A stretch of 64,000 bases of DNA from Escherichia coli (GTDB lineage: Bacteria; Pseudomonadota; Gammaproteobacteria; Enterobacterales; Enterobacteriaceae): assembly GCF_003334255.1 (NCBI RefSeq), contig NZ_QOWU01000017.1; one strand, written 5' to 3'. The translations under genes were made by a program, and so were the position numbers. The notes beneath the pieces were generated by a model that was given only the letters and a program-made list of their open reading frames with translations, was not told the origin of the DNA and made no database searches. Position 1 is the first letter of the stretch, and each line of letters starts with the position of its first letter. Positions 34,916 to 36,083 of this stretch are shown one piece after another.

Positions 34916-35042
34916 GCGAGTGAATCTTTCGTGCTATTCGAGTCATATTCTGAAATATCCAGCGGATCAAGAAAATTCGTTGGATATTTTTTTTGCATGG
35001 ATAAAATTATCGCCTCTAAAGTATGTAATAACAGGGAATGTG

Positions 35043-36083
35043 ATGAAAAAAGTTTTATTACAAAACCATCCTGGGAGCGAGAAGTATTCTTTTAATGGCT
35101 GGGAAATATTTAATAGTAATTTTGAACGGATGATTAAAGAAAATAAGGCCATGCTGCTTTGTAAGTGGGGGTTTTATTTAACATGTGTTGTCGCTGTAAT
35201 GTTTGTGTTCGCAGCGATAACATCCAACGGTTTGAATGAAAGAGGCCTGATTACCGCGGGATGCTCTTTTCTTTATCTATTAATTATGATGGGGCTTATT
35301 GTTCGGGCCGGTTTTAAAGCAAAAAAAGAACAACTGCATTATTATCAGGCTAAAGGTATTGAGCCGCTCAGTATCGAGAAGTTACAGGCGCTACAATTGA
35401 TCGCACCTTATCGATTCTATCATAAGCAATGGTCTGAAACGCTGGAGTTCTGGCCGCGAAAGCCTGAACCTGGCAAAGATACCTTCCAATATCATGTGCT
35501 TCCTTTTGACTCGATCGATATCATAAGTAAAAGACGCGAGTCTTTAGAGGATCAATGGGGTATCGAAGATAGCGAAAGTTATTGTGCCTTAATGGAGCAT
35601 TTTCTTTCTGGCGACCATGGAGCCAATACCTTTAAAGCAAACATGGAGGAAGCCCCAGAGCAGGTTATCGCCTTGTTGAATAAATTTGCTGTTTTTCCCT
35701 CAGACTATATCTCTGATTGCGCTAATCATAGCTCCGGTAAATCCTCGGCGAAGCTAATATGGGCGGCGGAATTATCATGGATGATCTCGATATCAAGCAC
35801 AGCTTTTCAAAACGGGACAATTGAAGAAGAACTGGCCTGGCATTATATAATGCTTGCTTCTCGAAAGGCGCACGAGTTGTTCGAAAGCGAAGAAGATTAT
35901 CAAAAAAATAGTCAAATGGGATTTCTTTACTGGCATATCTGCTGCTATCGCAGAAAGTTAACGGATGCTGAACTTGAAGCGTGTTATCGTTACGACAAGC
36001 AGTTTTGGGAGCACTACAGTAAGAAATGCCGTTGGCCCATAAGAAATGTTCCGTGGGGAGCATCATCCGTTAAATACTCATAA
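35043..36083 (+). CDS. ynjI: DUF1266 inner-membrane protein (346 aa from MKKVLLQNH; ORF track starts 123 nt upstream)
   Basis: ORF track; AT-rich; start adjusted to recalled length. Confidence 0.75.
   Translation: MKKVLLQNHPGSEKYSFNGWEIFNSNFERMIKENKAMLLCKWGFYLTCVVAVMFVFAAITSNGLNERGLITAGCSFLYLLIMMGLIVRAGFKAKKEQLHYYQAKGIEPLSIEKLQALQLIAPYRFYHKQWSETLEFWPRKPEPGKDTFQYHVLPFDSIDIISKRRESLEDQWGIEDSESYCALMEHFLSGDHGANTFKANMEEAPEQVIALLNKFAVFPSDYISDCANHSSGKSSAKLIWAAELSWMISISSTAFQNGTIEEELAWHYIMLASRKAHELFESEEDYQKNSQMGFLYWHICCYRRKLTDAELEACYRYDKQFWEHYSKKCRWPIRNVPWGASSVKYS

Follow-up and report, generated by a model that had tools for sequence, protein, structure and literature searches.

In the window, by which we mean the whole stretch of 64,000 nucleotides of Escherichia coli DNA that was analysed, an open reading frame located between topB and the convergent gene gdhA raises the question of where the encoded protein begins, whether its gene was acquired separately from its neighbours, and what this protein may do. 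The gene order at this locus of E. coli is selD-topB-ynjI-gdhA. Positions 34714-36214 of the window are 100% identical, in the reverse complement, to positions 1843700-1845200 of the MG1655 genome, and the feature is the E. coli K-12 gene ynjI, a real protein-coding gene that is already known along with its regulation. In the RefSeq annotation of MG1655, its product is a DUF1266 domain-containing protein of 346 aa (b1762, NP_416276.4). We estimate the probability that the gene structure, the regulation and the accessory status of ynjI are jointly as described below at about 0.8. All coordinates refer to the window and, unless indicated otherwise, to its plus strand.

Translation start of ynjI

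The first-pass annotation had this reading frame begin 5 bp after the topB stop and remain open for 41 codons upstream of the start that corresponds to the length of the K-12 protein, and both details are correct. The topB coding sequence (32954-34915) ends with TAA at 34913-34915, the GTG-started frame of 387 aa (34920..36083) opens 5 nt past this stop, and an in-frame ATG at 35043 gives a coding sequence (35043..36083) of 346 aa plus stop. The latter form is the one supported by NCBIfam NF008480, by RefSeq and by the alignment of a 43-member family. The score of the NF008480 model (PRK11380, YnjI equivalog) is 671 bits, well over its cutoff of 386, and residues 1-346 of the protein correspond to positions 1-350 of the 353 positions of the model.

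An exhaustive profile search revealed about 50 full-length relatives of YnjI at E < 1e-30. Forty-three of them, with 17-80% identity to YnjI, were aligned, and they include proteins of Hafnia, Pragia, Xenorhabdus, Chitinophaga, Haliangium, and actinobacteria. All 43 start two to six residues ahead of a near-invariant motif, LLQNHPG, which according to the family alignments occupies aa 5-11 of the 346-aa protein (35055..35075). Its residues Q7, N8, and P10 each recur in at least 90% of the aligned sequences. A counterpart of the 41 upstream codons is absent from all 43 aligned homologues. In the S3 and PT62 alleles of ynjI, the GTG at 34920 is replaced by GCG, and in one assembly (L019) the shortening of a poly-T run from eight to seven residues joins a different upstream frame to the same downstream protein. 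The protein of Shigella flexneri 301 that is named "ynjI" has 383 aa, which is the length of this T7-type joined frame. As read from the sequence, the Shine-Dalgarno-like AGGGA (35033..35037) is situated 5 nt upstream of ATG 35043, and inspection of the sequence ahead of GTG 34920 disclosed no comparable element. The GC content of the extension is 0.34, which makes it intergenic-looking.

Because of the N-termini of the homologues, the coverage of NF008480, the RefSeq/MG1655 annotation, the GCG alleles, the frame change in the T run, and the AGGGA, we judge that YnjI translation starts at ATG 35043 and not at GTG 34920. The 41 open codons upstream of it (34920..35042) are best read as a non-coding part of the topB-ynjI intergenic spacer.

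Regulatory content of the topB-ynjI spacer

A consensus scan and folding identified in this spacer an intrinsic-terminator-like hairpin with a run of eight T (34952..34994; stem-loop 34952-34990, T8 34987-34994), composed of a 16-pair stem and a 7-nt loop. It folds with -18 kcal/mol (z = -4.5), an energy that was not reached by any of 200 shuffled sequences. The hairpin and U8 are likely to be the intrinsic terminator of selD-topB. An Rfam scan of the region 34700-36400 found no family.

The candidate sigma-70 promoter detected by a hexamer search (34980..35007) consists of a -35 hexamer TTGGAT (34980-85), a 16-nt spacer and a -10 hexamer TAAAAT (35002-07). The predicted transcription start site (TSS) of ynjI would be at about 35014-35018 (about 1,844,896-1,844,900 in MG1655). 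A motif scan of the region 34700-35060 revealed a single plus-strand sequence that fits wwTTCykA, the core motif published for BglJ-RcsB, namely TATTCTGA at 34946-34953. The predicted TSS is 65-68 bp from this box, about 28 nt upstream of ATG 35043 and about 95 nt past GTG 34920, and therefore mRNA initiated at this predicted site could not encode the extension.

According to Salscheider et al. (PMC3950696), the TSS of ynjI was mapped by 5'-RACE, BglJ-RcsB activates ten promoters, including that of ynjI, 4- to 73-fold, and mutation of a site centred 65-68 bp upstream of the TSS abolished the activation of ynjI. The spacing in our prediction is equal to the published one, and from motif and spacing TATTCTGA is presumably the published BglJ-RcsB site. 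In the same study, the RACE product of ynjI is described as "very weak" without BglJ, which is itself an H-NS-silenced activator, and ynjI as moderately de-repressed in an hns stpA mutant. The supposition that ynjI is weakly expressed is borne out by these published data on a very weak promoter in the absence of BglJ and on moderate H-NS/StpA repression (PMC3950696). Results of our analysis suggest that the 123 nt which separate the two start codons would be regulatory DNA, with the selD-topB terminator, the BglJ-RcsB site and a weak, H-NS-dampened ynjI promoter. The terminator, the activator site and the promoter would thus all be packed in a topB-ynjI spacer of 127 bp.

Translation of the full 387-codon frame from GTG 34920 by coupling to topB, which would lengthen the protein by 41 residues at its N-terminus, appears extremely improbable. 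The reading frame is indeed open, long forms of 383-387 aa are used by some gene callers and database entries, and the closeness of the GTG to the topB stop would permit re-initiation. However, the homologues lack the extension and have their conserved motif where the very N-terminus of the short form is, the GTG is a GCG in other alleles, and a change of one nucleotide in the T run alters the upstream frame and leaves the downstream protein as it is. Moreover, a strong terminator hairpin and a promoter (PMC3950696) are inside the extension, whose low GC content and lack of a good preceding Shine-Dalgarno sequence also speak against its translation. All near-identical spacers keep the frame of the extension open, and topB read-through transcripts might therefore be translated at a low level from GTG 34920 or from the in-frame TTG 34980. 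With regard to the preferred start at ATG 35043, our result chiefly tidies the annotation, as it provides firm comparative grounds for the 346-aa form at a time when versions of 383-387 aa circulate in databases.

An accessory interval between convergent core genes

The region between the conserved bodies of topB and gdhA is a variable cassette of 1.3 kb (34888..36198, without strand assignment), the limits of which were determined by homology breaks relative to other haplotypes. It contains the last nine codons of topB, the terminator, the promoter, ynjI, and a BIME, and is bounded by the convergent neighbour gdhA (36200..37543, minus strand). Homology to a haplotype with an empty site (L012) is lost at 34887, nine codons short of the topB stop, and begins again at 36199, at the gdhA stop, and therefore the C-terminal tail of TopB differs between haplotypes. 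Homology to a haplotype with Hsp70 and J-protein genes (L002) ends at 34815 and restarts at 36200. The C-terminal tail of TopB, which is lysine-rich, varies among all three haplotypes.

The distribution of these haplotypes was assessed in 5,426 complete E. coli genomes, all of which match the flanking topB and gdhA sequence. The ynjI gene is present in 3,465-3,490 of them (~64%) and missing from ~36%. In 369 genomes (~7%), genes annotated as encoding an "Hsp70 family protein" and a "J domain-containing protein" replace ynjI. An empty site, with just ~100 bp between topB and gdhA, is characteristic of ~1,500 genomes (~29%), as estimated from 11 of 40 evenly spread rows and one genome checked directly. 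In some strains ynjI is interrupted by IS1, and its truncated versions are common in Shigella. Outside E. coli, the relatives of YnjI are scattered among Enterobacterales, Bacteroidota, Myxococcota, and Actinomycetota.

The composition of ynjI is unlike that of the genes on its two sides. Its GC content is 0.413, the GC content at third codon positions (GC3) is 0.418, and the fraction of rare codons is 9.9%, as compared to 0.552, 0.593, and 4.5% in topB, and 0.533, 0.545, and 1.8% in gdhA. Of 51 long open reading frames in the window, none has a lower GC3 than ynjI (z = -2.0), and the codon adaptation of ynjI to the pooled codon usage of the window is the second lowest (z = -2.1). The first-pass annotation, which proposed a calculation of GC content and codon usage, described ynjI as more AT-rich than topB and as possibly acquired separately. 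The calculation confirms the former (41% vs. 55% GC) and shows that ynjI is measurably atypical, and so not core-like. A separate acquisition is in turn corroborated by the presence/absence/replacement polymorphism of the locus, the atypical composition of the gene, and the scattering of its family over distant phyla. Thus, ynjI is a dispensable accessory gene in an AT-rich cassette located where the 3' ends of two core genes converge.

The REP/BIME element that had been noticed downstream of ynjI is indeed there, in the form of a BIME of two REPs (36097..36192, without strand assignment) located 3' of the gene, between the convergent ynjI and gdhA. The REPs, at 36104-36127 and 36160-36183, are 24 nt long, 83% complementary, and 32 nt apart. 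They agree with the definition of such elements as imperfect palindromes of ~35 nt with a GTAGGCC-type tail that occur as inverted pairs outside genes. The REP tail GTAGGCCTGATAAG has four matches elsewhere in the window, where 0.23 would be expected. In some strains, IS621 is present in the REP region 3' of ynjI.

Besides the three states of the locus, ynjI itself occurs in two deep allelic forms, the K-12 type and the S3/PT62 type, which share 65-67% of residues. The number of nonsynonymous substitutions per site (dN) between them is 0.20, and synonymous change (dS) is saturated; the dN/dS ratio between the S3 and PT62 genes is 0.36. The upstream spacers of these two forms are ~97% identical, and the nucleotide identity of the genes, which is 90% over the first 30 codons, falls to 54-70% beyond them. 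The conserved spacer, the decaying identity, and the saturated dS combined with low dN indicate a recombinational replacement of the gene body and long-standing purifying selection rather than a dead gene. The topB-gdhA interval is subject to a clean three-state polymorphism (ynjI, empty site, or Hsp70 and J/Sel1 genes), with a deeply diverged ynjI allele behind an unchanged promoter, and represents a convenient natural system in which to study how accessory genes turn over between core genes that converge.

YnjI, the DUF1266 domain and the HscC/J-protein lead

The first-pass description of the ynjI product as a DUF1266 membrane protein is supported by a match to the Pfam DUF1266 model (PF06889) with E = 3.8e-25, over model positions 1-175 of 175, and by the presence of two hydrophobic helices. 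AlphaFold2 (AF2) helices and hydropathy place a transmembrane hairpin at 35148..35306 (TM1 at about aa 36-60, TM2 at about aa 66-88), and Pfam and hhalign place the DUF1266 domain at aa 167-338 (35541..36056). Counts of lysine and arginine residues, six in the N-terminus, none in the loop, and five after TM2, are consistent with the predicted cytoplasmic location of both termini. The AF2 model obtained with the 43-sequence alignment (pLDDT 91.2, pTM 0.88) comprises a short N-terminus, a helix at aa 19-33, long helices at aa 36-60 and 66-104, a segment at aa 127-157 that is extended yet confidently placed, and nine further helices. It suggests that YnjI is an inner-membrane protein in which a compact, all-alpha cytoplasmic module (a linker with the motifs EQxxYY and WSETLE, and DUF1266) is packed rigidly on the hairpin. 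The YnjI-type architecture, as defined from the 43 sequences, consists of QNxP, two transmembrane helices, EQxxYY, WSETLE, and DUF1266 in a protein of ~340-400 aa, and the K-12 protein has all of these elements. Residues Q97, W130, W266, and W338 are invariant in the family alignment, and Y100, P138, and G190 are among further positions at which conservation reaches at least 90%. The superfamily signature GWDxxR reads AAELSW in K-12 YnjI.

A search of PDB sequences with the family profile gave chance matches alone (E >= 0.1), and a Foldseek search of AFDB50 revealed nothing beyond DUF1266 proteins. No relative of the model was found among solved structures. The best PADLOC match of YnjI, to its transmembrane stretch, was not significant (E = 0.017, 13 bits), and a PHROGs scan gave no match. 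In 24 multi-domain DUF1266 proteins, the domain is accompanied by ankyrin, TPR, beta-helix, or Cu_amine_oxidN1 modules or by tandem DUF1266 modules, and a fusion with a J domain was found in none of the 24. These fusion partners are more in line with a binding scaffold than with an enzyme. In agreement with the first-pass annotation, we found neither a function nor a phenotype of ynjI in the searchable literature, where further papers naming this gene contain it just as an entry in screen tables.

A lead to the function of YnjI is offered by the gene context of other DUF1266 proteins. In K-12, ybeR and ybeU overlap djlB and djlC, respectively, by 4 nt, and are presumably coupled to them in translation, beside hscC and two Sel1-repeat genes. 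DjlB and DjlC are J-domain co-chaperones of the specialised Hsp70 HscC; they are membrane-anchored, and HscC, which contributes to Cd2+ and UV tolerance in a manner not yet explained, probably serves membrane proteins (PMC8215388). DUF1266 is also paired with DjlB_C-type J proteins in Leminorella and, in two instances beside an HSP70 gene, in Salmonella. Pairwise BLAST of YnjI with YbeR and YbeU is marginal (E = 0.03-0.05), and hhalign to the YbeU/YbeR family indicates that aa 167-346 of YnjI are homologous to aa 40-229 of YbeU (96.9%, E = 1.8e-10, 170 columns). Additionally, the alternative cargo found at the ynjI site encodes a paralogue of HscC, with 43% identity over the full length, and a partner that combines in one protein a DjlC-like J domain and eight Sel1 repeats. 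BLASTP found no similarity between YnjI and this alternative J/Sel1 protein, and we therefore rejected an origin of ynjI as a fragment of the J/Sel1 gene.

No Hsp70 or J-domain gene was found near ynjI-type genes in five neighbourhoods, that of the window and four others. Thus, ynjI carries the domain that is operon-coupled to DjlB/DjlC but does so without J-protein or HscC adjacency, in its position between topB and gdhA. Three soluble metagenomic DUF1266 proteins are encoded on contigs too short for informative neighbourhoods. In PADLOC and PHROGs scans of YbeR/U, DjlB/C, YbeQ/T, and the alternative Hsp70 and J proteins, the Sel1 proteins matched the PtuA model by their repeats alone, and the alternative-cargo Hsp70 gave a weak match to the candidate PDC-M61B (E = 3e-4). 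Our search of the literature on HscC/J/Sel1 systems and phage defence found nothing relevant.

These observations may be explained by assuming that DUF1266 is a protein-binding helical scaffold at the inner membrane face, and that YnjI is its self-anchored version, which would present clients to, or receive them from, an HscC/J-type system. That YnjI acts with or like the HscC/J system, as a self-anchored DUF1266 module at the inner membrane face, is a tentative proposal, which we consider unlikely but suggested by the gene context of its relatives. It is weakened by the solitary position of ynjI-type genes in the five neighbourhoods, the absence of J-domain fusions from the 24 multi-domain DUF1266 proteins, the altered GWDxxR signature of YnjI, its lack of similarity to the J/Sel1 protein, and the lack of significant PADLOC and PHROGs matches. 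A broader proposal, still less probable, is that DUF1266 is an unrecognised client adaptor or regulator of systems composed of HscC-type Hsp70 and tail-anchored J proteins, and that ynjI and the cassettes of HscC-like and J/Sel1 genes are interchangeable versions of one accessory module of membrane proteostasis (or conflict). If it is true, the two deep allelic forms of ynjI that stand behind one conserved promoter would stem from a diversifying exchange of the client-binding part. The co-location of ynjI and the Hsp70 and J/Sel1 cassettes at one site could also be a coincidence, because insertions are frequent in the gaps that separate convergent genes. The recurrent coupling of DUF1266 to J proteins of the poorly understood HscC provides a concrete and cheap hypothesis for the function of ynjI.

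Two other explanations of the role of ynjI have to be weighed against it. YnjI may be independent of Hsp70/J systems, as a membrane sensor or scaffold or as an immunity-like protein of inter-bacterial or phage conflicts, and in such a case the link of DUF1266 to DjlB/C would be specific to YbeR/YbeU. This is a genuine possibility, although doubtful. It is favoured by the solitary position of the ynjI-type gene in every neighbourhood examined, by the fusion of DUF1266 to Ank and TPR repeats and not to J domains, and by the combination of a polymorphic locus, deeply divergent alleles, and patchy distribution, which is typical of conflict genes. It is weakened by the marginal PADLOC match, the lack of any PHROGs match, the lack of a toxin-like neighbour, and the identity of the alternative cargo at the ynjI site, which is an HscC/J/Sel1 set. 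Decidedly improbable is, in turn, the view of ynjI as a functionless relic of horizontal acquisition that is decaying and is kept only because it is silent. Its absence from about 36% of genomes, its interruptions by IS1 and truncations in Shigella, the change of the conserved D..R signature to E..W, the lack of phenotype reports in the searchable literature, and the very weak expression without BglJ, reported in PMC3950696, would be consistent with such a fate. However, ~3,500 genomes carry an uninterrupted frame with at least 95% identity, the deep alleles combine saturated synonymous change with a dN of 0.20, which implies long purifying selection, a dedicated activator site has been retained (PMC3950696), and the predicted fold is confident. 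We therefore prefer to regard ynjI as a functional accessory gene, for which its possible relation to HscC/J systems is a lead to follow.

Our analysis extends what is known of this gene by a firm comparative case for the 346-aa start, an interpretation of the spacer as a terminator and a promoter, the three-state locus, and a testable lead from DUF1266 to HscC and J proteins. As compared to K-12 ynjI (b1762), the gene of the window is the same and identical in sequence, and the coordinates of the first-pass annotation add 123 nt that are absent from the curated annotation. In its regulation, ynjI is a published member of the BglJ-RcsB regulon and of the H-NS-silenced xenogeneic genes (PMC3950696), and is AT-rich like other genes of this group (chiA, molR, yecT, ygiZ, and ynbA, among others). 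This membership concerns regulation and is silent on the function of the protein. With other BIME/REP elements, the REP pair between ynjI and gdhA shares inverted palindromes, the GTAGGCCTGATAAG-type tail, and the location between convergent genes. With YbeR and YbeU, YnjI shares a homologous DUF1266 domain. However, YbeR and YbeU are soluble proteins of 235 aa whose genes overlap djlB and djlC, whereas YnjI is encoded by a solitary gene and has its own N-terminal motif, transmembrane hairpin, and linker.

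Allele divergence at ynjI and its altered DUF1266 signature

Comparison of ynjI of the window (K-12-type allele, 35043-36083) with the genes of strains S3 and PT62 (loci L001, 3244-4275, and L018, 1043-2074) indicates that two deep alleles occupy one locus, with 65-67% amino acid identity, a dN of 0.20 and saturated synonymous sites, while the spacer upstream of them is about 97% identical. Such divergence directly behind a nearly identical spacer implies that the gene body was swapped by recombination, with a predicted break within the first ~30 codons. In both K-12-type and S3-type YnjI, the DUF1266 superfamily signature GWDxxR is replaced by AAELSW (window 35760-35780, aa 240-246), with D changed to E and R to W; the arginine is kept in more distant Escherichia-type alleles (P0006 and P0007).

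The topB-gdhA site and its alternative cargo

Among the 5,426 complete genomes of E. coli, 369 carry two other genes in the topB-gdhA gap in place of ynjI, as in E. coli EC09 (L002, 1305-4945, at the site equivalent to window 34816-36199). The first encodes a paralogue of HscC, with which it shares 43% identity, and the second a protein of 647 aa with a DjlC-like J domain and eight Sel1 repeats; no characterisation of either was found in the searchable literature. The polymorphic segment begins inside topB, and topoisomerase III therefore has a lysine-rich C-terminal tail that varies among the three locus haplotypes (window 34816-34915; the empty-site locus L012, 991-1110; L002, 944-1063), the versions ending in 13 residues not reproduced here, in SPPSEEAGNGVII and in KPQKDNTDSAN.

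Sequences flanking ynjI and other low-GC ORFs

The poly-T tail of the likely topB terminator (window 34987-34994) is T8 in the window vs. T7 in another assembly (L019), and this one-base difference accounts for the 383 aa and 387 aa lengths of "YnjI" entries across databases. On the other side of the gene, a strong RpoS-holoenzyme binding peak detected by genomic SELEX at coordinate 1841754 has been assigned to the gdhA/ynjI convergent spacer of MG1655 (PMC5493296), which corresponds to window 36084-36199; by current MG1655 numbering, this coordinate falls outside the spacer.

Mobile elements were also observed at the locus (L001, 4455-5435; genome matches H1, H24, H32, H42, and H46): several strains carry IS621 within the REP/BIME 3' of ynjI, and in others ynjI itself is disrupted by IS1. 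A second REP pair, likewise a BIME and with the same GTAGGCCTGATAAG tail as the ynjI-gdhA one, lies at window 63646-63708. Three other long ORFs of the window have unusually low GC (8054-9529, minus strand, 0.384; 25060-25818, plus strand, 0.423; 60466-61308, plus strand, 0.415) and may likewise be acquired or H-NS-bound genes.

YnjI-type genes in related bacteria

Another enterobacterial genome (GCA_004309785.1; L009, 6001-7107) carries a YnjI-type gene, 27% identical, which by Pfam annotation is flanked on one side by a fructosamine-kinase (YniA-like) gene and on the other by a YniB-family gene. The chromosomal sites of YnjI-type genes therefore differ among related bacteria.
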